From a virus (lineage: Duplodnaviria; Heunggongvirae; Uroviricota; Caudoviricetes): a stretch of 41,977 nt of DNA. This document shows positions 1,419 through 41,977 of the stretch, in pieces. A model generated the notes under the pieces. The model saw nothing but the letters and a program-made list of their open reading frames with translations, was not told the origin of the DNA and made no database searches. Both the position numbers and the translations under genes were made by a program. The stretch spans positions 1-41,977 of the IMG/VR virus record IMGVR_UViG_2563366853_000004; one strand, 5' to 3'. Positions within the stretch are counted from its first letter, which is position 1. Each line of letters opens with the position of its first letter.

Positions 1419-2489
1419 TTATTTGATTTCAATTTTGTCCCACTCCCTGCCTCTGTCATCACGATACTGTGATGCCATGGTGTCCGACTTATGCCCGAGA
1501 AGATGTTGAGCAAACTTATCGCTTATCTGCTTCTCATAGAGTCTTGCAGACAAACTGCGCAACTCGTGAAAGGTAGGCGGATCCCCTTCGAAGGAAAGAC
1601 CTGATGCTTTTCGTGCGCGCATAAAATACCTTGATACTGTGCCGGATGAAAGCGGTTCACGACGAGTAGATGCAATTATGGTTTCTCCGCCAAGAATCTC
1701 TTTGCATTTATCAAGTGTTTCCTTCATTGATATCCCGAGAGCATCAACATGCAATGTTGTAGGGATGGCAATTTTTACGCCTGTTTTGCTTTGCTCGACA
1801 TAAAGATATCCATCTACGATATCAGACCACTTCATTTCGCATAAATCACCAACTCGCTGCCCGGTAACAACAGCCAGTTCCATTGCAAGTCTGAGCCAAC
1901 ATGGTGATGATTCTGCTGCTTGATAAATTTTCAGGTATTCGTCAGCCGTAAGTCTTGATCTCCTTACCTCTGATTTTGCTGCGCGAGTGGCCGCGACCGG
2001 GTTTGTTGTTATATGGCCTTCAGCTATTGCCTCTCGGAATGCATCGCTCAGTGTTGATCTGATTAACTTGGCTGACGCCGCCTTGCCCTCGTCTATGTAT
2101 CCATTGAGCATTGCCGCAATTTCTTTTGTGGTGATGTCTTCAAGTGGAGCATCAGGCAGACCCCTCCTTATTGCTTTAATTTTGCTCATGTAATTTATGA
2201 GTGTCTTCTGCTTGATTCCTCTGTTGGCGAGGATTTTTTCGTAGCGATCAAGCCATGAATGTAACGTAACAGAATTATCACTGTTGATTCTCGCTGTCAG
2301 AGGCTTGTGTTTGTGTCCTGAAAATAACTCAATGTTGGCCTGTATTGCTTCAGTGATTGCTATCCTCCTGTCTCGGCCTAATCCAAACTCTTTACCCGTC
2401 CTTGGGTCCCTATAGCAGTAATATCCATTGTTTCTTATATAAAGATTAGGGGGTAAATCCCGGCGCTCATGACTTCGCCTTCTTCCCAT
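1419..2489 (-). CDS. int: Lambda-type integrase (tyrosine recombinase)
   Basis: 356-aa translation beginning MGRRRSHERRDLPPNLYIRNNGYYCYRDPRTGKEFGLGRDRR… is essentially lambda Int as I recall it. Confidence 0.95.
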   Translation of the reverse strand: MGRRRSHERRDLPPNLYIRNNGYYCYRDPRTGKEFGLGRDRRIAITEAIQANIELFSGHKHKPLTARINSDNSVTLHSWLDRYEKILANRGIKQKTLINYMSKIKAIRRGLPDAPLEDITTKEIAAMLNGYIDEGKAASAKLIRSTLSDAFREAIAEGHITTNPVAATRAAKSEVRRSRLTADEYLKIYQAAESSPCWLRLAMELAVVTGQRVGDLCEMKWSDIVDGYLYVEQSKTGVKIAIPTTLHVDALGISMKETLDKCKEILGGETIIASTRREPLSSGTVSRYFMRARKASGLSFEGDPPTFHELRSLSARLYEKQISDKFAQHLLGHKSDTMASQYRDDRGREWDKIEIK

Positions 2490-2685
2490 TTCTGATCCTC
2501 TTCAAAAGGCTACCTGTTACTGGTCGATTTAAGTCAACCTTTACCGCTGATTCGTGGAACAGATACTCTCTTCCATCCTTAACCGGAGGAGGGAATATCC
2601 TGCACTCGCGTACCCATCGACGAACTGTTTCAAGGCTTCTTGGGCGTCGCTGGCGTGCGTTCCACTCCTGAAGTGTCAAGTACAT
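2467..2685 (-). CDS. xis: Excisionase
   Basis: 72-aa translation MYLTLQEWNARQRRPRSLETVRRWVRECRIFPPPVKDGREYLFHESAVKVDLNRP… matches lambda Xis; overlaps the int start as in lambda. Confidence 0.95.
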   Translation of the reverse strand: MYLTLQEWNARQRRPRSLETVRRWVRECRIFPPPVKDGREYLFHESAVKVDLNRPVTGSLLKRIRNGKKAKS

Positions 2686-2697
2686 CGCAAAGTCTCC

Positions 2698-2711
2698 GCA
2701 ATTACACGCAA
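2698..2711 (-). promoter_or_regulatory. pI-type CII-dependent promoter element (TTGC-N6-TTGC) at the xis 5' end
   Basis: Minus-strand sequence TTGCGTGTAATTGC, the same motif and position as lambda pI. Confidence 0.6.
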
Positions 2712-3583: not shown

Positions 3584-4789
3584 TTATTCATTGCCGATAT
3601 TCACCTTTATCGCGAACACCTTTACCGGTTTATCACCGAAGTGCGGATGTGTGATTGTCTTGATTTCATATCCGTCATACGGGACGTCAATTCTGCGACT
3701 GAAATCGTCGCGCTTCGGATATCCCTTTGTGATAATCAGGCGGCCATACTCGCGGAACATGATTCGCTTATTCCAGTAGTCATTACACAGGCGATACTCT
3801 TCCGTCTTCTCTCCGCGAATCATGGCATCGAAGTATTCACCTTTAACGGCAAGTTGCAGGTTAGCCACGGTTAACTCCTGCTTCGGTGCTGCTGGCATTT
3901 CACGCCAGTGCGTAACTGAGTGCGGATCCGGATATTCGGTGCCATCATCCCAGCGATTACCATTCCACATTGCAGACCACATCTCACCGTCTTCATACAT
4001 GACCATTACCGGAATTAACTTATCCGGCATTCGCTCACTACAGCTTATCCAACCATCCGGAGTTACCGGAGAGTTGCCAGCCAGTCTACGCAAAACAGCC
4101 TTAACCGCCTCAATACGGTCATCATCGCAATTTTCCAGCGTATCTATGCGGTCGAGCATGATGATGGCGTTATCAATATCAGGATTGCCGGTCCACTCAT
4201 TACCGCGATTGGATTCGGCAGCCTGGTTGCCACGTACTGGTTGATTCTCGGCTTTACCCTGTCTGTCGTCGCTGCATGAATGCCCTTCCAGCCAGACCAG
4301 TGCTTGTCGCATGAAATACGCAATATGCTTGCCGTGGTAATCGTCTTCATCGATGTGAAAAGCGATACTGCGGATATATTCAATTGCGTTTTCAATGGCC
4401 TCTAACGCTATCGGTGCTGGCGGAGTGGTATATAGTTTTCGACATTTGTTTATCCAACCGGCATGGTCAGGCGTGTCTGTAAAGCGCAAATCGTCTTCGT
4501 AGCCCTCACGACTACGTTCTTTCCATTCCGTCCACGGAACACCGCTATTCCAAGTGGGGCGAGTGCAGGACTGATACAGAACAGGCTCTGCTTCCAGCGA
4601 TGCCAGCACAATTCGTGCCAGCTCACGCACTACTTCCGGGGGCGCGTAACGGTCATTCAGGTCATCCCACAGGCGTAGCATGTTATCGCTACTAGGGTGA
4701 ACATCCTCGTTAGTTCCGGCAAGCGCACTAATAACCTCATCGGCTGCCTCAATAATTTTCAGAGCTTGTTCTCTGGTAATAGTGGTCAT
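3584..4789 (-). CDS. Multidomain protein: unknown N-terminal region, DUF551-like middle segment, ASCH/PUA-like C-terminal domain
   Basis: 401-aa ORF; the DGWISCSERMP…THWREMP segment resembles DUF551 of lambdoid early-left proteins; the C-terminal KGEYFDAMIRGEKTEEYR…ITKGYPK segment resembles ASCH. Domain calls are from memory. Confidence 0.6.
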   Translation of the reverse strand: MTTITREQALKIIEAADEVISALAGTNEDVHPSSDNMLRLWDDLNDRYAPPEVVRELARIVLASLEAEPVLYQSCTRPTWNSGVPWTEWKERSREGYEDDLRFTDTPDHAGWINKCRKLYTTPPAPIALEAIENAIEYIRSIAFHIDEDDYHGKHIAYFMRQALVWLEGHSCSDDRQGKAENQPVRGNQAAESNRGNEWTGNPDIDNAIIMLDRIDTLENCDDDRIEAVKAVLRRLAGNSPVTPDGWISCSERMPDKLIPVMVMYEDGEMWSAMWNGNRWDDGTEYPDPHSVTHWREMPAAPKQELTVANLQLAVKGEYFDAMIRGEKTEEYRLCNDYWNKRIMFREYGRLIITKGYPKRDDFSRRIDVPYDGYEIKTITHPHFGDKPVKVFAIKVNIGNE

Positions 4790-4799
4790 TTGTTATGCC

Positions 4800-4997
4800 T
4801 CAATACACGAAATCTGTTTTAAATTCATGGTTACATTCTGGACAGCATGTTTCGTAACCTTTTATTTCTTCACATGCCTGTTTAGCTCCAGAAAACTCCC
4901 AGAAATCTGGATCACAAAGCAGATCGAAATTGTGACCACATTTGGGACATTCGGTATCAAGTGACAGACTCCAGTAAGCAGGGGTATTTTTATCCAT
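4800..4997 (-). CDS. Small Zn-ribbon protein (double CxxC)
   Basis: AGGAG 6 nt upstream of the ATG at 4997 (MDKNTPAYW…); CPKCGHNF…CCPECNHEF motifs. Confidence 0.55.
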   Translation of the reverse strand: MDKNTPAYWSLSLDTECPKCGHNFDLLCDPDFWEFSGAKQACEEIKGYETCCPECNHEFKTDFVY

Positions 4998-4998
4998 A

Positions 4999-5187
4999 TC
5001 ACTCTCCTTTAGTGCGCAAGTGGTTTTTCCAGAGGTTTTGCGCCGCGCTGGGCTTTTTGCAAAACCCACAATCCATCATCCCGTAATATTTCATCAACCC
5101 CATCCGTCGGTTGCTGAGTCTCACCCACTGCCAGACGCCAGGAGCGTTTCTACGAACTAACAGAATCTTTGCTTTACGGTTTTTCAT
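4999..5187 (-). CDS. Small basic ORF (MKNRKAK…), uncertain
   Basis: 62-aa ORF whose stop abuts the start of the Zn-ribbon gene; weak SD; its 5' end is repeated at 5341..5360. Confidence 0.3.
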   Translation of the reverse strand: MKNRKAKILLVRRNAPGVWQWVRLSNRRMGLMKYYGMMDCGFCKKPSAAQNLWKNHLRTKGE

Positions 5188-5532
5188 CTTACTGCGTACC
5201 CTTTCTTCCGCCTGTTCTGTGACGCAGTAGGCTTACGCTTTGCGGCAAAAGCCACCTGACCAAATGGATGGAGTACCGCTATCTTATGGTTGCTAATAAC
5301 CAGCTCCACCACACGCACAGGTCGCTGTAAAAAAAGTCGTTTTGCCTTACGGTTTTTCATCGCTTTGCTCTCCTGCGTCTCTTTGCTGCTCGTCGTGCCG
5401 CTGCAATACCGGTATGGCGGCGCTTTGGTACTGGGGTGATGTTGTCAGCCATCAGGACCTGTGGCTTTGCAATTAGCGCAGAAGCCCAAAAACGAGTCGG
5501 GTACGGTAACAAGCCAATACATGCCACACGCA

Positions 5533-6087
5533 CTACTCACCTCCGTTGATGCGAATGCCTGTTGCAATGCTGTTTATGATGCTGTCAGTGCATGGGGTAG
5601 AAAGCTGGGCATCTCCAGCAATTTTCATGACATCAACATCTGCATATCGAATACCGAGGTGTATCAGACCGGCTATACCTGACTTAAGCCGAGCATTTTC
5701 CATAAACAGATCCTTTGCCCGCTGTTTTTCTGCCTCAAGCTCAACGCGCAACTTCCCTACCGTTAACGCAATATCCTCGTTCTCCTGGTCGCGGCGTTTG
5801 ATGTATTGCTGGTTTCTTTCCCGTTCATCCAGCAGCGCCAGTACGGTAGCCGGATTGGCTGCGGCGATGAATTCAGCATTGGCCTGCTGTTCCATTTGGA
5901 AATCTTCATCGAAACCGCTTTCAGGATGTGCTCCTTCAATTCTGCAAATGGGAAGATATCCAACAACTTCACGATGAATTAACGCATCATCACAATCAAA
6001 TCGGCTCTCTCCATATTCGAGCGACCATACACCACACGTTGCTTTTTCTGCCTTGGCACGCAGTGCCTGATAGTCAATCTTGCTCAC
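5533..6087 (-). CDS. Ead/Ea22-like early protein
   Basis: N-terminus [21 protein letters not shown]… and the AEFIAAANPATVLALLDE motif recalled from the Ea22-like family. Confidence 0.6.
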   Translation of the reverse strand: MSKIDYQALRAKAEKATCGVWSLEYGESRFDCDDALIHREVVGYLPICRIEGAHPESGFDEDFQMEQQANAEFIAAANPATVLALLDERERNQQYIKRRDQENEDIALTVGKLRVELEAEKQRAKDLFMENARLKSGIAGLIHLGIRYADVDVMKIAGDAQLSTPCTDSIINSIATGIRINGGE

Positions 6088-6599
6088 TGGTTGCCTCCTT
6101 TGCGAAGTTTCGCGGCAAAATCAGCCGCAACCTCTTTGACCATATTGGAAAGCGGAGTGCCACCTCCGAATTTTTCTGAGAACATCTCCACGCCCTGTGC
6201 CCGCAGTTCCGACAGGAAAGCGTCGGTGGCTTGGGTTTCGATATCGTTAATTTCAGGAAGAATCTCTTCCCATGTAGCGATATCGCCATTCAAATGCCAT
6301 CCGGCAATTCCACTGGAGTTATCCGCAACACTGCGAACGGCTTCAATAGTTTCATGCATTGCCGCATTCTCCGCTGCCAGCGCCGAAAACTTCTCGTGTG
6401 CCAACTTAACAGCCGCATCAGCCTGCTTAATTGACTCAATCGCTTTCTGGTGGTCTTCGGACAGAGCCGAAATCTTGGCCTCCGCTTCAGCAAATTTACG
6501 CACCAGATATTCAGCGTTTGTTTCGTTAACCTTTAAATCTCGTGGGATGCATTTACCTTTCAGAAAACCATCCATCTCAATTAGTGACATTTGTTTCAT
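6084..6599 (-). CDS. Hypothetical coiled-coil protein
   Basis: ORF track gives a GTG start at 6617; an ATG at 6599 overlaps the upstream stop as ATGA; overlaps the downstream gene start. Confidence 0.5.
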
Positions 6600-6760
6600 T
6601 TCTTCCCACTCCGCCACATCGCATTCAGATATTTGTTTTGATTCACTGATGGAAACGAGTTTTGCTTAAGTAATTCCTCTCTCGATGGCATTGGCTTTAC
6701 GCGTTGGCGAATAATCATTTCTGCCGGAAGAATGCCGGGATTGTATGCAAGTCCTCTCAT
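6596..6760 (-). CDS. Small hypothetical protein (54 aa)
   Basis: Hand-translated ORF below the track cutoff, coupled by ATGA overlaps at both ends (6757..6760 and 6596..6599). Confidence 0.35.
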
Positions 6761-10266: not shown

Positions 10267-10593
10267 TCAAATAAGTGGTTTGCTGCCTAATTTCATTTTC
10301 TGGCGACCAACACAAGTCACGCCCATTTCACTGCGTGGCTTGCTGTACCATGTGCGCTGATTCTTGCGCTCAATACGTTGCAGGTTGCTTTCAATCTGTT
10401 CGTGGTATTCAGCCAGCACCGTAAGGTCTATCGGATTCAGTGCGCTTTCTACTCGTGATTTCGGTTTGCGATTCAGCGAGAGAATAGGGCGGTTAACTGG
10501 TTTTGCGCTTACCCCAACCAACAGGGGATTTGCTGCTTTCCATTGAGCCTGTTTCTCTGCGCGACGTTCGCGGCGGCGTGTTTGTGCATCCAT
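10267..10593 (-). CDS. N: Antitermination protein N
   Basis: MDAQTRRRERRAEKQAQWKAANPLLVGVSAKPVNRPILSLNRKPKSRVESALNPIDLTVLAEYH… is lambda N with a few C-terminal differences. Confidence 0.95.
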   Translation of the reverse strand: MDAQTRRRERRAEKQAQWKAANPLLVGVSAKPVNRPILSLNRKPKSRVESALNPIDLTVLAEYHEQIESNLQRIERKNQRTWYSKPRSEMGVTCVGRQKMKLGSKPLI

Positions 10594-10703: not shown

Positions 10704-10734
10704 GCCCTTCTTCAGGGCTTAATTTTTAAGAGCG
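10704..10734 (-). promoter_or_regulatory. nutL (boxA CGCTCTTAAAAA and boxB GCCCTGAAGAAGGGC on the leftward transcript)
   Basis: Reverse complement of 10704..10734 gives lambda boxA and the boxB hairpin upstream of N. Confidence 0.85.
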
Positions 10735-12033: not shown

Positions 12034-12327
12034 ATGGTTCGTGCAAACAAACGCAACGAGGCTCTACGAATCGAGAGTGCGTTGCTTAACAAAATCGCAA
12101 TGCTTGGAACTGAGAAGACAGCGGAAGCTGTGGGAGTTGATAAGTCGCAGATCAGCAGGTGGAAGAGGGACTGGATTCCAAAGTTCTCAATGCTGCTTGC
12201 TGTTCTTGAATGGGGCGTCGTTGACGACGACATGGCTCGATTGGCACGACAAGTTGCTTCGATTCTCACCAATAAAAAACGCCCGGCGGCAACCGAGCGT
12301 TCTGATCAAATCCAGATGGAGTTCTGA
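12034..12327 (+). CDS. cII: Transcriptional activator CII
   Basis: [75 protein letters not shown]… is lambda CII. Confidence 0.95.
12042..12055 (-). promoter_or_regulatory. pRE CII-binding site (TTGCGTTTGTTTGC) within the cII 5' end
   Basis: Minus-strand TTGC-N6-TTGC repeat at the same position as lambda pRE. Confidence 0.75.
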
Positions 12328-26424: not shown

Positions 26425-27696
26425 ATGCCTAACAATCTCGACAGTAACGTCAGTCAAATCGTTCTGAAAAAATTCCTTCCGGGTTTTATGTCAGATTTAG
26501 TTCTGGCGAAAACCGTAGACCGTCAGTTGCTGGCAGGTGAAATCAACTCCAGCACTGGCGATAGCGTTAGCTTTAAACGTCCGCATCAATTCTCATCCCT
26601 CCGTACTCCCACTGGTGATATTTCAGGGCAAAATAAAAACAACCTGATCTCAGGTAAAGCTACGGGGCGTGTAGGTAACTACATCACTGTTGCTGTTGAA
26701 TATCAGCAACTGGAGGAAGCGATCAAGCTTAACCAACTGGAAGAAATTCTCGCGCCGGTTCGCCAGCGAATCGTTACCGACCTTGAAACAGAGCTTGCTC
26801 ACTTCATGATGAATAACGGTGCGTTGTCACTTGGTAGCCCCAATACTCCAATCACCAAATGGTCTGATGTTGCGCAGACGGCATCTTTCCTGAAAGACCT
26901 CGGCGTTAATGAAGGTGAAAACTATGCTGTAATGGATCCATGGTCTGCACAGCGACTTGCTGATGCGCAGACTGGTTTGCACGCTTCAGATCAATTGGTT
27001 CGTACTGCATGGGAGAATGCGCAGATTCCAACCAATTTTGGCGGCATTCGCGCACTGATGTCTAATGGGCTTGCCTCTCGTACGCAGGGGGCATTTGGCG
27101 GAACACTGACAGTCAAAACACAGCCAACTGTTACCTATAACGCAGTTAAAGACTCATACCAGTTCACTGTAACATTGACCGGAGCGACAGCCAGCGTTAC
27201 AGGTTTTCTGAAAGCTGGTGATCAGGTTAAATTCACCAATACCTACTGGCTGCAACAGCAGACCAAACAGGCGTTGTATAACGGAGCCACACCAATTAGC
27301 TTCACTGCAACGGTTACTGCTGATGCTAATTCAGACAGCAGTGGCGATGTGACGGTTACGCTTTCTGGTGTTCCGATTTATGACACTACAAACCCGCAGT
27401 ACAACTCTGTAAGTCGTCAGGTAGCGGCAGGCGATGCCGTATCTGTGGTAGGCACTGCTAGCCAGACAATGAAGCCAAACCTGTTCTATAACAAGTTCTT
27501 CTGTGGACTTGGCTCTATCCCACTACCGAAACTGCACAGTATTGATTCTGCTGTTGCAACATATGAAGGTTTCTCCATCCGCGTACATAAATACGCAGAT
27601 GGCGATGCCAACGTGCAAAAAATGCGCTTCGACTTACTGCCTGCATATGTGTGCTTTAACCCTCACATGGGCGGTCAGTTCTTCGGTAATCCGTAA
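26425..27696 (+). CDS. Major coat protein (P22/Sf6-type)
   Basis: 423-aa ORF downstream of the scaffold gene; followed by a strong terminator. Confidence 0.8.
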   Translation: MPNNLDSNVSQIVLKKFLPGFMSDLVLAKTVDRQLLAGEINSSTGDSVSFKRPHQFSSLRTPTGDISGQNKNNLISGKATGRVGNYITVAVEYQQLEEAIKLNQLEEILAPVRQRIVTDLETELAHFMMNNGALSLGSPNTPITKWSDVAQTASFLKDLGVNEGENYAVMDPWSAQRLADAQTGLHASDQLVRTAWENAQIPTNFGGIRALMSNGLASRTQGAFGGTLTVKTQPTVTYNAVKDSYQFTVTLTGATASVTGFLKAGDQVKFTNTYWLQQQTKQALYNGATPISFTATVTADANSDSSGDVTVTLSGVPIYDTTNPQYNSVSRQVAAGDAVSVVGTASQTMKPNLFYNKFFCGLGSIPLPKLHSIDSAVATYEGFSIRVHKYADGDANVQKMRFDLLPAYVCFNPHMGGQFFGNP

Positions 27697-27702
27697 TAAC
27701 AA

Positions 27703-27724
27703 GGGGGCTTACGCCCCTTTTATG
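27703..27724 (+). terminator. Intrinsic terminator/attenuator after the coat gene
   Basis: GGGGGCTTACGCCCC hairpin followed by TTTTATGTTTT. Confidence 0.6.
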
Positions 27725-27739
27725 TTTTAAGGAAACAAT

Positions 27740-35538: not shown

Positions 35539-35904
35539 ATGAAAAAAGTTAACATTGGAAACGTACCAAAGATGCTCGTTCCGCTCTTTGAGAGCGGTAC
35601 AATTGTGTTTTGTAGAGACTTTCCAGAATGGCAACGCCTGCATCAAAAACTTGGCGTTGACGTGCATGACTCGGACGCCAACGGAGCGTCTCATACAATG
35701 AGTAGCGAGAATGGTGTTTTGCATGTGATAGGCGTGTTCAATGGCAAACTATCTACTATTGCCCATGAGTGCGCTCACATGGCATTCGATATCTGCTCAA
35801 GGGTAGGTGTTGATGTTGAACCAGGAAGAGCCAACGAGACTTACTGCTACTTAATGAGCAGGCTTGTTGAGTTCTGCGAGCGACATATCAAAAAGCCGGA
35901 GTGA
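35539..35904 (+). CDS. Small HExxH-motif protein (putative Zn-metallopeptidase-like)
   Basis: 121-aa ORF containing [10 protein letters not shown]; its stop lies within a bidirectional terminator hairpin. Confidence 0.5.
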
Positions 35905-35930
35905 CCCGGCTTGATTATTACTTTTTGCTG
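35893..35930. terminator. Bidirectional intrinsic terminator between the HExxH gene and the convergent small gene
   Basis: AAGCCGG-agtgac-CCGGCTT hairpin flanked by T-tracts on both strands. Confidence 0.55.
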
Positions 35931-36187: not shown

Positions 36188-36211
36188 AACCCACCTTCAG
36201 GTGGGTTTTTT
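36188..36211. terminator. Hairpin terminator at the mnt 3' end (possibly bidirectional)
   Basis: AACCCACC-ttca-GGTGGGTT followed by TTTTTG; overlaps the mnt stop codon. Confidence 0.5.
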
Positions 36212-36448
36212 GTACAAATCCTTCAGCGTATCAAACACCATCTTCTTAACAAGCTCTGACTGCTCATCAGCGATGCGTTCCGCATCGTCTCGATAGCCTG
36301 AAATTTTGGATGGCTTTGATACAGCATCAGTCACTATCTGAACTAATTCTGAATTAAGAGAGCGGCCATTGGATTTGGCTCGCTGTTTTAGTTTTTCCTT
36401 TAATTCGTAAGGTAGCCGCAGATTAAATTGCGGGTCATCTCTTCCCAT
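36197..36448 (-). CDS. mnt: Mnt-type ribbon-helix-helix repressor (P22 immI)
   Basis: MGRDDPQFNLRLPYELKEKLKQRAKSNGRSLNSELVQIVTDAVSKPSKISGYRDDAERIADEQSELVKKMVFDTLKDLYKK closely matches P22 Mnt as recalled. Confidence 0.85.
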   Translation of the reverse strand: MGRDDPQFNLRLPYELKEKLKQRAKSNGRSLNSELVQIVTDAVSKPSKISGYRDDAERIADEQSELVKKMVFDTLKDLYKKPT

Positions 36449-36594: not shown

Positions 36595-39540
36595 ATGACA
36601 GACATTACAGCCAATGTTGTAGTGAGTATGCCTTCGCAACTCTTCACTATGGCGCGTTCTTTTAAAGCCGTAGCCAATGGCAAAATTTATATCGGTAAAA
36701 TTGACACTGACCCGGTAAATCCTGAAAACCAGATTCAGGTTTATGTAGAGAACGAAGACGGTTCTCACATTCCTGTTTCGCAACCAATAATCATTAACGC
36801 TGCTGGATATCCGGTATATAACGGACAGATTGCCAAATTCGTAACCGTGCAAGGCCATTCTATGGCTGTTTATGATGCGTATGGTACACAGCAGTTCTAT
36901 TTTCCGAATGTGCTGAAGTATGATCCTGATCAGTTACGACAGCAATTAGAAGACCCAGATGGAGCGAATAAATACCCAAAACTTCAGATAGCAAGATGGA
37001 GAGACAGTTATGATGTAAGAGGTTGGGGGGCTATTGGTGATGGTGTTCATGATGATACATCAGCTCTATCAGAATTACTTTCTGTTGCAACAGGTGGTGA
37101 AAAGATAGATGGGCGAGGGCTTACTTTTAAAGTATCAACTCTTCCAGATGTCAGTCGATTTAAAAATGCTCGTTTTTTATTTGAGAGAATACCGGGTCAG
37201 CCTCTTTTTTATGCTTCTGAAGATTTTATCCAAGGAGAGTTATTTAAAATTACAGATACACCGTGGTACAACGCCTGGACGCAGGATAAAACGTTTGTAT
37301 ATGACAATGTCATCTATGCGCCTTTTATGGCTGGAGACCGCCATGGTGTAAATAACCTCCATGTTGCATGGGTTCGCTCAGGAGATGACGGGAAGACCTG
37401 GACAACGCCGGAATGGCTTACAGATTTACATGAAAACTATCCCACAGTTAACTATCACTGCATGAGTATGGGGGTTGTCAGAAATCGCCTTTTTGCTGTA
37501 ATTGAGACGCGGACCGTGAGCGGAAATAAACTGCAGGTTGCAGAGTTGTGGGATCGCCCAATGAGTCGCAGCCTTCGCGTTTATGGTGGTATAACGAAAG
37601 CAGCAAATCAGCAAGTCGCTTATATTCGCATTACTGATCACGGATTATTTGCTGGTGATTTTGTCAACTTCTCAAACTCTGGTGTTACAGGTGTTACCGG
37701 GAATATGACGGTGACTACTGTCATTGATAAAAATACTTTTACAGTTACGACGCAAAATACCCAGGATGTGGATCAGAATAACGAGGGTAGATACTGGAGT
37801 TTTGGTACATCATTTCACTCGTCACCATGGAGAAAAACCAGTCTTGGAACTATTCCTTCTTTTGTTGACGGAAGCACTCCTGTTACTGAGATTCACAGTT
37901 TTGCGACGATTAGCGATAACAGTTTTGCTGTTGGCTACCATAATGGTGATATTGGTCCACGCGAGCTTGGGATACTCTATTTCTCTGATGCTTTCGGTTC
38001 TCCTGGTAGCTTTGTTCGCAGACGCATACCTGTAGAATATGAGGCGAATGCATCTGAGCCATGTGTAAAATATTATGATGGCATTCTGTATCTGACGACC
38101 AGGGGGACATTAAGTACTCAACCCGGTAGTTCATTGCACAGAAGCTCTGATTTAGGTACATCATGGAATTCTCTTCGCTTCCCAAATAATGTTCATCACT
38201 CAAACCTTCCTTTTGCCAAAGTTGGCGATGAGCTGATTATTTTTGGCAGTGAGCGCGCATTTGGTGAGTGGGAAGGAGGAGAACCTGATAACCGTTATGC
38301 AGGAAATTATCCAAGAACATTTATGACCAGAGTTAACGTCAATGAGTGGAGTCTGGATAATGTAGAGTGGGTTAATGTTACTGATCAGATTTATCAGGGC
38401 GGAATAGTTAACTCTGCGGTTGGTGTTGGTTCAGTTTGTATCAAAGACAACTGGCTGTACTACATTTTCGGTGGGGAAGACTTTCTAAACCCATGGAGCA
38501 TAGGGGATAACAACAGAAAATATCCTTATGTTCACGATGGTCACCCGGCTGATTTGTATTGTTTCAGGGTGAAAATTAAACAGGAAGAATTTGTTTCAAG
38601 GGATTTTGTCTACGGAGCCACTCCTAACAGAACGCTTCCTACTTTTATGTCGACGTCAGGCGTGAGGACGGTTCCTGTACCCGTTGATTTCACAGATGAT
38701 GTTGCCGTCCAGTCACTGACTGTCCATGCAGGTACATCAGGACAAGTTCGCGCGGAAGTCAAACTTGAGGGTAATTACGCCATTATTGCGAAGAAAGTAC
38801 CGTCTGATGATGTTACCGCTCAGAGATTAATCGTTAGCGGAGGTGAAACAACGTCTTCAGCAGATGGTGCAATGATAACGTTGCATGGTTCCGGAAGCAG
38901 TACTCCACGTCGCGCGGTATATAACGCACTCGAACATCTTTTTGAGAACGGAGATGTTAAACCTTATCTTGATAATGTAAATGCTCTTGGTGGTCCGGGA
39001 AACAGGTTCTCGACAGTTTATCTTGGCTCCAATCCTGTGGTTACCAGTGACGGAACATTAAAGACAGAGCCGGTCTCTCCTGACGAAGCATTGCTGGATG
39101 CCTGGGGTGACGTCAGGTATATCGCTTATAAATGGCTGAACGCTGTCGCTATAAAGGGGGAAGAAGGGGCGAGGATACATCATGGTGTAATCGCGCAGCA
39201 ACTTCGTGATGTTCTTATTTCTCACGGACTCATGGAAGAAGAAAGCACAACATGCCGCTATGCCTTTCTTTGCTATGACGATTATCCCGCAGTATATGAT
39301 GACGTCATTACTGGCCAAAGGGAAATGCCGCTGACTGATAATGACGGGAGCATCATTGTTGATGAGGATGATAATCCAGTGATGGTAATGGAAGACATCA
39401 TTGAGCGCGTTGAAATAACGCCAGCAGGATCTAGATGGGGGGTCAGACCTGATCTCTTATTCTATATCGAGGCGGCATGGCAGCGCAGAGAAATAGAAAG
39501 AATAAAAGCTAGGTTAGACTTAATAGAAGGGAAGCACTAA
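36595..39540 (+). CDS. Tailspike: P22-type N-terminal head-binding domain, endosialidase-like catalytic region, C-terminal intramolecular chaperone domain
   Basis: N-terminus [58 protein letters not shown] matches the conserved P22 tailspike N-domain; the central region is unlike P22 gp9 and its endosialidase assignment is from memory of CUS-3/K1F; the last ~160 aa resemble the self-cleaving chaperone domain with a candidate cleavage motif VVTSDGTLK. Confidence 0.8.
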
Positions 39541-39684
39541 ATGTTTCGTTGGCGTCAAAAATATGAACTGCTCACATAAAGAAGTAAGTACATTGGCAAA
39601 AAATATTGACGTCAACGAAATTAAATATAAAACATCATGCAGACATATTACCAATATTAATATAAGGTAATAAAAATATAATTT

Positions 39685-39711
39685 ACAAAAAAGCCCGTTG
39701 GAAGCGACGGG
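39685..39711 (-). terminator. Intrinsic terminator oriented against the tailspike gene
   Basis: GCCCGT-tggaagcg-ACGGGC followed by TTTTTTG on the minus strand. Confidence 0.5.
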
Positions 39712-39968
39712 CATTAACCGCGGTAATGGATAAATTATTAATGTTTTTAGATTGTGAACGATATCATATTGTGCGGAAGTAGTGAAGTAACCATGTAAAA
39801 TGATTGTTTCATAGCCTATGAGACACACAAGGCTTTGTGCTCTTCGATAGTTGTTAAGGCGGATCACTCTACATTCTCATCAAGCCAATCCGCCCACCAC
39901 TGCATCATTTCTCTGCGCTTATCGAGATACTGAGCATGGTTGTAAATTCAACTAACCAAGTCCGTTGA

Positions 39969-40011
39969 CAAAAAATTAGCGCAAGAGGACAAAAAATCAC
40001 CTTGCGCTAAT
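39969..40011 (-). terminator. sib/tI: int retroregulation hairpin and terminator
   Basis: Perfect 11-bp inverted repeat ATTAGCGCAAG / CTTGCGCTAAT with 15-nt loop, followed by TTTTTTG on the minus strand, directly outside the P arm of attR; matches lambda sib/tI as recalled. Confidence 0.75.
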
Positions 40012-40156
40012 GCTCTGCCTCAGGTCACTAATACTATCTAAGTAGTTGATTCATAGTGACTGGATATGTTGTGTTTTGTAGTATTATGCAGTCTATTATT
40101 TAGACTAAATCTTTCATAACATATTGATATTTACAGTGTTTTCTGTTTCTCGTTCA

Positions 40157-40171
40157 GCTTTTTTATACTAA
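40157..40171. repeat. attR common core GCTTTTTTATACTAA, preceded by the lambda P arm
   Basis: Exact core repeat; upstream sequence (…CAGGTCACTAATACTATCTAAGTAGTTGATTCATAGTGACTGGATATGTTGTGTTTT…) matches the lambda P arm; downstream CTTGAGCGAAACGGG is the host attB arm. Confidence 0.9.
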
Positions 40172-40261
40172 CTTGAGCGAAACGGGAAGGTAAAAAGACA
40201 AAAAGTTGTTTTTAATACCTTTAAGTGATACCAGATGGCATTGCGCCATCTGGCAGAGTGA

Positions 40262-40738
40262 TTAACTAAACATCGCAGTAATCGAGGCACTCGCCAGAGA
40301 GTGAAAATGAACGTTAAACCCGACCATCGCGCCGCTGGCACCTTCATCGACATCAATACGTTCTACATCCAGCGCGTGAACGGTAAAAATGTAGCGATGG
40401 GTTTCGCCTTTCGGCGGCGCTGCGCCATCGTACCCGGTTTTACCAAAGTCGGTACGCGTCTGCAAAACGCCGTCTGGCATAGCTACCAGACCAGAGCCAA
40501 ACCCTTGCGGTAATACGCGGGTATCAGCGGGTAAATTAACAACTACCCAGTGCCACCAGCCGGAGCCGGTTGGCGCATCCGGGTCATAGCAGGTGACAAC
40601 AAAACTTTTCGTTCCCGCAGGAACATCATCCCACGCCAGATGCGGTGAAATATTATCGCCATCGTAACCCATGCCGTTAAAGACATGACGATGCGGCAGC
40701 TTATCGCCATCGCGCAGATCGTTACTGATGAGTTTCAT
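40262..40738 (-). CDS. ybhB: YbhB (PEBP/RKIP-family protein), host gene flanking lambda attB
   Basis: 158-aa translation with a PEBP-like signature (…CYDPDAPTGSGWWHWVVVNLPA…); recalled as the gene to the right of attB. Confidence 0.85.
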   Translation of the reverse strand: MKLISNDLRDGDKLPHRHVFNGMGYDGDNISPHLAWDDVPAGTKSFVVTCYDPDAPTGSGWWHWVVVNLPADTRVLPQGFGSGLVAMPDGVLQTRTDFGKTGYDGAAPPKGETHRYIFTVHALDVERIDVDEGASGAMVGFNVHFHSLASASITAMFS

Positions 40739-40846: not shown

Positions 40847-41977
40847 ATGAAACGCGCATATAAATACCGGTTTTACCCGACAACTGAGCAGGCTGAGCTT
40901 TTAGCTCAGACGTTTGGCTGTGTGCGCTTCGTCTACAATTCCATCCTTCGTTGGCGTACCGATGCGTACTACGAGCGAAAAGAAAAGATCGGTTATCTAC
41001 AGGCCAACGCTCGCCTTACGGCGCTCAAAAAAGAGCCTGAATACATATGGCTGAATGATGTTTCCTGCGTTCCCCTCCAGCAGTCGTTGCGCCACCAACA
41101 AGCCGCCTTTGCTAACTTCTTTGCCGGACGAGCTGCATATCCGGCTTTCAAAAGCAAACGGCACAAACAGGTGGCTGAGTTCACTGCCAGCGCGTTTAAA
41201 CACCGTGACGGCGAGTTGTATATAGCAAAGAGCAAGTCGCCGCTGGATGTTCGCTGGAGTCGAGAATTACCATCTGCGCCGTCAACCGTTACCATTTCCA
41301 GAGATAGCGCTGGCAGGTACTTTGTTTCCTGCCTGTGTGAGTTTGAACCTGTATCAATGCCTGTTACCGCTAAAACGGTCGGCATTGATGTGGGCTTAAA
41401 AGATTTATTCGTCACCGATACCGGATTCAAAACCGACAATCCCCGCCACACCGCTAAATATGCGAAGCGATTAACGCTGCTACAGCGACGTTTAAGCAGG
41501 AAGCAAAAAGGCTCAAGAAACCGAATTAAAGCCCGCTTAAAGGTCGCCCGACTCCACGCGAAAATCGCCGATTGCCGGATGGACAATCTGCACAAGTTGT
41601 CCCGCAAACTGATTAACGAAAACCAAGTTGTTTGCGTCGAATCCCTCAAGGTGAAAAACATGATCCGCAACCCGAAGCTGTCTAAAGCAATAGCTGACGC
41701 AGGCTGGAGCGAACTTGTTCGCCAGCTCCAGTACAAAGGCAAATGGGCCGGGCGGTCAGTGGTCGCCATTGACCAGTATTTACCGTCCTCAAAATGCTGT
41801 AGTTGCTGCGGTTTCACCATGCAAAAAATGCCTCTTAATGTTCGTAAATGGCACTGCCCTGAATGCGGCGCAGACCATGATCGCGACATTAACGCGGCAC
41901 GTAATATTAAAGCTGCCGGGCTGGCAGTGTTAGCCCACGGAGAGCCTGTAAACCCTGAATCGCAGCACGCGGCTTAG
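40847..41977 (+). CDS. tnpB: TnpB (IS200/IS605-family OrfB; RuvC-like RNA-guided endonuclease)
   Basis: 376-aa ORF with N-terminal MKRAYKYRFYPT, RuvC-I-like GIDVGLKD, C-terminal zinc finger CCSCC…CPECG and RuvC-III-like DHDRDINAARNI; no tnpA nearby. Confidence 0.85.
   Translation: MKRAYKYRFYPTTEQAELLAQTFGCVRFVYNSILRWRTDAYYERKEKIGYLQANARLTALKKEPEYIWLNDVSCVPLQQSLRHQQAAFANFFAGRAAYPAFKSKRHKQVAEFTASAFKHRDGELYIAKSKSPLDVRWSRELPSAPSTVTISRDSAGRYFVSCLCEFEPVSMPVTAKTVGIDVGLKDLFVTDTGFKTDNPRHTAKYAKRLTLLQRRLSRKQKGSRNRIKARLKVARLHAKIADCRMDNLHKLSRKLINENQVVCVESLKVKNMIRNPKLSKAIADAGWSELVRQLQYKGKWAGRSVVAIDQYLPSSKCCSCCGFTMQKMPLNVRKWHCPECGADHDRDINAARNIKAAGLAVLAHGEPVNPESQHAA

Follow-up and report, generated by a model that had tools for sequence, protein, structure and literature searches.

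In phage lambda, transcripts that start at pI end at the terminator tI, and transcription from pL that has been modified by N passes it. The RNase III substrate forms in the read-through RNA only, and the cut that RNase III makes there leads to 3′-to-5′ decay of the int mRNA. The sources of this sib/tI model are reportedly Schindler & Echols 1981, Guarneros et al. 1982 and Schmeissner et al. 1984. Summaries of lambda retroregulation are given in PMC5300877 and PMC2951348. The int genes of KplE1, HK620, Sf6 and CUS-3 are transcribed from a promoter of their own that overlaps attL, and are uncoupled from the RDF (Panis et al., PMC2951348). The integrase of CUS-3 is a P4-like tyrosine recombinase (Pfam Arm-DNA-bind_3 and Phage_integrase), and in the Lederbergvirus N7 a strong minus-strand terminator, placed at the end of the int-ORF21 unit, faces the tail gene.

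Elements of these systems are found side by side in the window analysed here, a stretch of 41,977 nucleotides (IMG/VR record IMGVR_UViG_2563366853_000004) that consists of E. coli chromosome with one complete prophage inside. The right end of the prophage (attR) is very probably a three-part mosaic of a lambda sib/P arm, a CUS-3-type integration relic and a tailspike flank with an empty neuO site, in which sib/tI should work as in lambda and a second hairpin, hairpin 2, is an inherited int terminator.

Prophage Layout

The lambda att core, GCTTTTTTATACTAA, has exactly two exact copies in the window, where none is expected by chance, and they mark the two ends of the prophage together with the arms of the attachment site:

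1331–1345, no strand: attL core GCTTTTTTATACTAA, exact match, followed by the P′ arm
40157–40171, no strand: attR core GCTTTTTTATACTAA, exact match, followed by host DNA and ybhB
40015–40156, no strand: P arm of the lambda-type attachment site, part of attR here, with Int arm-type and accessory-factor sites

The left neighbour of the prophage is ybhC; the right neighbours are, in order, ybhB (for a protein of the PEBP family), a gene for a solo TnpB and bioA. The integration site is the classical lambda attB, between ybhC and ybhB. The P arm aligns with the annotated 'int 1' and 'int 2' binding sites of lambda, and in a BLAST search against 50,697 phage records the segment 39966–40171 matched lambda 27534–27738 with 87% identity, further matches being found in 434, HK97, HK106, HK629/630 and others. 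At the level of bacterial genomes, the region 39541–40156 is present with 100% identity in E. coli strain CUVET21-PYO5, and the prophage right end is carried by about 25 of 5,426 complete E. coli genomes.

The virion genes beside sib are P22-like, as had been anticipated. The tailspike (36595–39540, 981 aa) joins a P22 head-binding domain to an endosialidase and its chaperone domain; among phages its nearest relatives are CUS-3 and vB_EcoP-720R6, both placed in Lederbergvirus. Lambda early and integration genes are thus combined with P22-like virion genes, and the phage is therefore a hybrid.

The sib/tI Hairpin

Two overlapping minus-strand features, placed between the P arm and the tailspike, are needed for what follows:

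39966–40020, minus strand: sib, extended RNA duplex of ~22 bp, with a 7-bp outer, a 12-bp inner and a 3-bp apical stem and 1x1 mismatches between them
39967–40011, minus strand: tI, intrinsic terminator predicted in silico, made of the inner hairpin 39975–40011 with its perfect 11-bp repeat and the tract UUUUUUGUC

The perfect 11-nt inverted repeat, ATTAGCGCAAG/CTTGCGCTAAT, lies at 39975–39985 and 40001–40011 with a 15-nt spacer, exactly where the original prediction had placed it, and on the minus strand UUUUUUGUC follows the stem directly. The prediction had also named the repeat sib/tI and proposed a comparison with the lambda sequence, and this comparison bears it out. Relative to lambda 27534–27584, 50 of 52 positions are identical (96% over 52 nt), with stems that are 100% identical; the two differences, given for the plus strand as G in place of A at one position and an additional A, are confined to the loop. 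Both 11-nt arms and the flanking A-run are identical in the window, lambda, 434 and HK97. The hairpin is located 146–182 nt to the left of the attR core, a spacing equal to that in lambda (locus L001). Moreover, 50 nt homologous to it carry the label 'sib retroregulation site' in the GenBank record of HK97, and the record of phage 434 labels the homologous stretch a terminator. Judged by its sequence, 39975–40011 is the lambda sib/tI. An Rfam scan of 39300–40400 at a permissive threshold returned no matching family for the sib hairpin.

Folding of the minus-strand RNA from 39960 to 40025 (66 nt) gives −28.2 kcal/mol with a z of −5.75, and none of 200 shuffles is as stable; the stability of the sib/tI hairpin is far beyond chance. 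Two states of this RNA can be told apart. The tI hairpin (12 + 3 bp) has −18.5 kcal/mol alone, and in an RNA that ends there the U-tract is unpaired (−18.6 kcal/mol). In the longer RNA an outer stem of 7 bp is added, formed by GGCAGAG, upstream, with UUUUUGUC, to a total of ~22 bp and about −27.2 to −28.2 kcal/mol. The outer stem is missing from the folded RNA that ends in the U-tract; because this tract is itself part of the outer stem, the stem forms in read-through RNA only. Lambda sib RNA has the same folded architecture, with the U-tract in the extended stem, and by homology with it sib is the presumed RNase III substrate in read-through pL RNA. A simple terminator scan misses tI since the loop limit of the scan is 8 nt.

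Conservation of sib Among Lambda-Type attP Loci

The hairpin was compared across 67 IMG/VR loci with a lambda-type attP, plus reference phages. Within the module the sib stems vary least, with three singleton variants in 24 stem columns (49 unique sequences, 68 loci). In the P arm 62 of the 137 columns are variable, although 28 of those 137 were fixed by the search pattern. A covariation test of the sib helix over the 68 loci found none of the three singleton changes compensated, so the helix is supported by conservation without a covariation signal, the sequences being too conserved to give one.

The DNA to the left of sib falls into at least five unrelated flank classes among the lambda-type attP loci, and the homology between these classes stops at ...GAC, the last base pair of the sib outer stem. 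Since homology stops where the outer stem ends, sib is the last functional element of a mobile module that consists of sib, attP, int and xis. The prophage illustrates that lambda retroregulation travels inside a compact module that spans from sib to xis and whose left boundary coincides with the end of the sib helix.

The Retroregulation Circuit

The remaining components of the lambda circuit are encoded at the left end of the prophage and in its early region:

1419–2489, minus strand: lambda int, the gene under sib control, with 352 of 356 aa identical to lambda Int (99%) and the Pfam lambda arm-binding and catalytic domains
2467–2685, minus strand: xis (Pfam Exc, E = 3.9e-41)
2698–2711, minus strand: CII box TTGCGTGTAATTGC of pI, just upstream of the xis ATG, assigned from the sequence; the homologous position of 434 is annotated pI with a CII site
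10267–10593, minus strand: lambda-type N antiterminator (Pfam N36, E = 1.5e-26)
10704–10718, minus strand: nutL boxB GCCCTGAAGAAGGGC, directly upstream of N, exact pattern match with ~0.01 expected by chance
12034–12327, plus strand: lambda-type CII, activator of pI (Pfam Phage_CII, E = 5e-48)

From the att core to 2716 the DNA is 98% identical to lambda, and every gene from N to int is on the minus strand. Both promoter inputs of int are present as sequence, that is, the parts of N-antiterminated pL and the parts of CII-dependent pI. With att cores at both prophage ends (1331–1345 and 40157–40171) and int and xis at the left one, sib is set apart from int in the lysogen, just as had been foreseen, and the two are rejoined after excision.

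Taking these components together, the circuit would run as follows. Transcripts from pI, activated by CII, would end at tI with a 3′ hairpin that protects them. Transcripts from pL, modified by N, would pass tI, and the U-tract together with the next GUC would pair with the GGCAGAG located upstream of the hairpin, lengthening the helix from ~15 to ~22 bp. RNase III would cleave the ~22-bp helix, and the int mRNA would then decay from its 3′ end. In the lysogen, sib is at attR and int at attL, ~38 kb apart, and therefore Int could come from pL after induction until excision brings the two together again. The homology, the geometry, the predicted folds and the presence of every protein and promoter part are observed, while we infer that RNase III cuts, how efficiently the sites terminate and that N-modified polymerase passes them.

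The CUS-3-Type Integration Relic

Between sib and the tailspike gene the sequence is of other origin. A block of 326 bp, 39622–39947, is 99.7% identical to CUS-3 (CP000711, 1266–1591), and the region can be divided into the following parts:

39541–39621, plus strand: tailspike 3′ flank, with a long-range inverted repeat (39544–39558/39606–39620) and a single ATTAAATATAAAA
39622–39864, minus strand: DNA found downstream of the integrase gene in CUS-3 (3′ UTR and intergenic); its 243 bp match CUS-3 and phiv205-1 at 100% identity
39685–39712, minus strand: hairpin 2, terminator-like, GCCCGU, 8 nt and ACGGGC, then UUUUUUGU; −9.3 kcal/mol, putatively inherited from downstream of a CUS-3-type int
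39865–39948, minus strand: remnant of a P4-like (CUS-3-type) tyrosine integrase, its last 27 codons (IYNHAQYLDKRREMMQWWADWLDENVE) plus stop, with an in-frame TGA directly upstream

In an alignment the remnant corresponds to the C-terminus of CUS-3 Int, a protein of 397 aa that ends in ...GIYNHAQYLDKRREMMQWWADWLDEKVE. PGAP calls it a pseudogene without N-terminus, a 'hypothetical protein', and this pseudogene can now be named as the tail of a replaced P4-like integrase. A minus-strand ORF of 115 aa (39520–39867) was considered as a gene and rejected: it has no Pfam family, spans the terminator and runs into the tailspike stop, and it is a 'hypothetical protein' in 720R6. In the record of 434 a plus-strand CDS is annotated antisense to the remnant; at this place the window contains no ORF on the plus strand that reaches 40 aa.

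Remnants that start at the same codon, 22 nt from the A-run of sib, are present at no fewer than 19 other lambda-type attP loci, and BLAST found the remnant in ~24 of 71 loci (about a third), phage 434 included. Lambda is without remnant, yet it has 40 bp (27471–27510) that in 434 sit just downstream of it. This distribution suggests a single old replacement, in which most of a P4-type int gene gave way to a lambda-type module, and the scar left behind may have helped later module exchanges as a homology patch. A search of the literature, not an exhaustive one, did not find a discussion of the shared integrase scar.

On the tailspike side, the inverted repeat of the flank (15 nt, 47-nt spacer, z −4.2) has no U-tract. 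The element ATTAAATATAAAA (39609–39621) has one copy in the window, and two copies of it bracket the neuO O-acetyltransferase cassette in CUS-3; from this single copy, 39541–39621 is recognized as an empty neuO insertion site. E. coli IAI39 carries a neuO-bearing version at the same lambda att site.

Hairpin 2 as a Probable Inherited Terminator

The second hairpin was predicted at 39685–39711. It is present, with a right end that proved one base off (39712). Its stem GCCCGT/ACGGGC is formed by 39693–39698 and 39707–39712 (6 bp, five of them G-C) around an 8-nt loop, and the A6 that precedes it on the plus strand (39687–39692) gives the minus-strand reading GCCCGUCGCUUCCAACGGGC-UUUUUUGU. The U-tracts of both hairpins are on the minus strand only, the int-sense (leftward) strand, and the proposed orientation of both against leftward transcripts is thereby upheld. 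Within 39541–40156, hairpin 2 is the sole terminator-like match of the scan (loop limit 8 nt), and no plus-strand terminator is predicted from the tailspike stop to the att core.

Hairpin 2 is best read as the inherited terminator of the integrase gene that was replaced, an assignment that derives from its genomic context. In CUS-3 an identical hairpin 2 is placed 152 nt after the int stop, where it is the sole minus-strand terminator-like site between int and the convergent neuO/tailspike. A CUS-3-type int would have been transcribed from its own attL promoter toward tailspike and neuO, and hairpin 2 would have ended that convergent unit; an int gene directed at the tail genes in this way requires a terminator of its own. 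In the window the only gene upstream of hairpin 2 on the same strand is the 27-codon pseudogene. In the phage collection the hairpin-2 segment is found in CUS-3, phiv205-1 and vB_EcoP-720R6 only, and among the IMG/VR loci only alongside a CUS-3-type tailspike (L046 and L071). The latter keeps hairpin 2 but no longer has the remnant, which was lost through a junction at a common 12-mer, AGGCTTTGTGCT. Since hairpin 2 stays with the tailspike where the remnant is lost, it belongs to the tailspike-side DNA and is older in the lineage than the lambda module. Against the assignment, the 152 nt from the int stop to hairpin 2 would be a long 3′ UTR if the hairpin simply terminates the gene.

The folding itself is unexceptional, and we consider it unlikely, though less so than the other alternatives, that hairpin 2 is a palindrome arisen by chance, or a dead relic, and does not terminate transcription in any context. 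On the minus strand, within 51 nt, its z is only −0.9; 35 of the 200 shuffles are as stable, so that its stability does not exceed chance. Shuffled sequences give ~0.9 terminator-like matches per kb, and ~0.1 such minus-strand matches would be expected per 243 bp, as estimated from the shuffled controls. Conservation does not help either, since every copy in the phage collection is at least 99.5% identical, with no diverged one among them, and copies that are all 99–100% identical are uninformative. With unexceptional folding and ~0.1 expected matches, hairpin 2 is therefore credible by context and not by statistics. Against a chance origin, a GC-rich stem with five of six G-C pairs stands in very AT-rich DNA with six U directly after it; it is on the strand of the sole upstream gene of CUS-3, between convergent genes; it is among the better matches of the right 20 kb of the window (6th of 37); and the architecture at N7 is analogous.

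The original prediction held that both hairpins serve in the hybrid to stop pL transcripts that have passed attP, so that these do not reach the tailspike gene in antisense direction. Transcription from pL does, after excision, probably run antisense into this gene. The U-tracts are on the correct minus strand, both hairpins stand between attP and the tailspike 3′ end, and no minus-strand gene lies past them; lambda read-through RNA expresses b-region genes, and here read-through has no obvious use. However, the phage encodes a lambda N together with nutL, and the sib mechanism needs N-modified read-through of tI. For this reason we expect transcription from pL, once modified by N, to pass tI and also hairpin 2, which is much weaker than tI (−9.3 vs −18.5 kcal/mol). 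Moreover, hairpin 2 was inherited in the 326-bp CUS-3 block and is older than the hybrid, being unchanged in CUS-3, which has no lambda module, so that an origin of hairpin 2 as an adaptation within the hybrid is not supported. We regard the stopping of pL transcripts as the role of the pair as very unlikely. Plausibly, tI and hairpin 2 can stop unmodified polymerases, those that come from pI during the establishment of lysogeny and those that read through from host ybhB in the lysogen; ybhB, a minus-strand gene, directly adjoins attR on the right, and its hairpin at 40231–40253 has no good U-tract. With its int now gone, hairpin 2 could thus still halt unmodified leftward polymerases that escape tI.

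Equally hard to credit is an action of hairpin 2 in plus-strand RNA, as a 3′ stabiliser or weak terminator of tailspike or neuO messages. The plus-strand fold, 8 bp closed by a tetraloop, has −13.9 to −15.4 kcal/mol (z of −2.2) and is stronger than that of the minus strand, and in CUS-3 hairpin 2 is placed ~70 nt after the neuO stop. But the stem is followed by AUUAACCG and by no plus-strand U-tract, hairpin 2 is absent from the results of the plus-strand terminator scan, and it lies outside the repeat-bounded neuO cassette and is kept where neuO is absent. Least believable of all is that the ~150 nt between the remnant stop and hairpin 2 (39713–39864, minus strand) encode a small RNA or a micro-protein, with its end at hairpin 2, and have been retained for this reason: the spacing from stop to terminator is unusually long and the segment has 100% identity in several hybrid prophages, including the remnant-less L071, but this identity reflects recent common descent and not selection, no Rfam family matches (best E = 0.59, anti-hemB, on hairpin 2 itself and at chance level), no promoter-like site precedes it on the minus strand within the segment, and the 115-aa ORF across it belongs to no Pfam family and passes through the terminator.

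Comparison with Known Systems

In sib/tI, its circuit and its geometry we recognize known biology in a new mosaic and no new mechanism. That CUS-3-like hybrids which took up the lambda integration module have kept the relic for a purpose, with or without the integrase remnant, either as a fail-safe insulator behind tI that keeps unmodified pI and ybhB transcription from entering the tailspike gene antisense or with its ~150-nt segment giving rise to a small RNA, is a speculation that we consider improbable. The main value of the analysis is annotation, which places sib/tI, the P arm and the att cores in a prophage that is a hybrid of lambda-type early and integration genes and P22-type virion genes.

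The integration module of CUS-3 shares with the window the 3′ end of int and the adjoining downstream DNA, in which hairpin 2 is included; tailspike and tailspike 3′ flank of the window are of CUS-3 type as well. Unlike CUS-3, the window keeps 27 integrase codons only; the argW-specific attP of CUS-3 and its int promoter have been replaced by the lambda sib-attP-int-xis module. The neuO cassette, present in CUS-3, is missing. The int-ORF21 terminator of N7 is also a GC-rich hairpin with a U-tract on the leftward strand, just before the 3′ end of a rightward tailspike, but its stem has 10 bp versus 6 bp in hairpin 2, which has no intact upstream gene in the window.

With lambda the likeness is closest. 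The stem sequences of sib/tI, their strand, their position some 170 nt from the att core on the side of the P arm, the U-tract and the extended fold are the same in the window prophage, as are int, xis, pI with CII, N with nutL and the separation of sib from int on integration. The outer stem has one more possible pair here, with GGCAGAG in place of lambda AACAGAG. What differs is the DNA beyond sib, which in lambda is the b region and in the window prophage an integrase remnant, with P22-like tail genes behind it that are encoded on the other strand. The read-through RNA is therefore antisense to a late gene, whereas in lambda it is sense to early b-region genes.

Boundary of the integration module

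Among 68 loci, homology between otherwise unrelated left flanks, of the lambda, 434, HK97, CUS-3-type and other classes, runs precisely to GAC and no further; GAC marks the final pair in the outer stem of the retroregulatory hairpin sib (window 39966-39969). The sib structure therefore sets the limit of the mobile integration module. Beside sib, the window retains part of another integration system:

39865-39948, minus strand: remnant of a P4-like (CUS-3-type) integrase gene, C-terminal 27 codons, the A-run of sib lying 22 nt away

The same remnant is found in phage 434 (1545-1622) and in at least 19 IMG/VR loci, its truncation codon being identical in about one third of the lambda-type attP loci; of this region, lambda has kept only 40 bp of the downstream flank. 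The common truncation codon and the short flank in lambda suggest a single ancient swap, in which a lambda-type integration module took the place of a P4-type one. Recombination within the short interval between the tailspike flank and sib has been repeated, as shown by the sequence of a variant hybrid locus (L071, IMGVR_UViG_3300045988_089679). There, the CUS-3-type tailspike flank and the terminator-like hairpin 2 are fused directly to lambda-type sequence left of sib; the junction is a shared 12-mer, AGGCTTTGTGCT, and the integrase remnant is absent.

The tailspike gene and its flanks

The sequence ATTAAATATAAAA is present in a single copy in the window (39609-39621), whereas in CUS-3 it occurs twice, at about 1640 and about 2490, on either side of the phase-variable neuO O-acetyltransferase cassette. 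From this difference in copy number, the neuO site of the window is empty, either by precise loss or as the pre-insertion state. In IAI39, the version that occupies the lambda att site does contain neuO. The insertion point adjoins the right arm of an inverted repeat:

39544-39558 / 39606-39620, plus strand: 15-nt inverted repeat, 93% complementary, 47-nt spacer, starting 4 nt past the tailspike stop

Its fold has a z of -4.2 and is not followed by a U-tract; no conventional terminator was found on the plus strand from the tailspike gene to the att core. Upstream of the tailspike lie:

35893-35912 and 36188-36207: two hairpins, terminator-scoring on both strands, flanking a small minus-strand ORF
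36197-36448, minus strand: Arc-family repressor gene, adjoined by one of these hairpins

By analogy with P22, this area is probably an immI-like region.

Host DNA to the right of attR

Two features were located here:

40231-40253, minus strand: perfect 9-bp hairpin just past the ybhB stop
40847-41977, plus strand: solo TnpB/InsQ gene, IS605 family, 376 aa, OrfB_IS605 and Cas12f1-like TNB domains

Folded as RNA, the hairpin extends to 11 bp, at -19.4 kcal/mol with a z of -5.0, and it lacks a good U-tract. Should it be a poor terminator, transcription from the host would pass into attR and reach tI in the lysogen.

The vB_EcoP-720R6 record (GenBank ON470605), a 'phage' entry labelled partial genome, runs beyond attR into host ybhB, bioA and bioB (3725-6634), and represents either a deposited prophage region or the bio-transducing product of an aberrant excision. 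In relatives such as 720R6 and IAI39, bioA directly follows ybhB, whereas in the window the TnpB/InsQ gene, with no tnpA seen within the window, sits between them.
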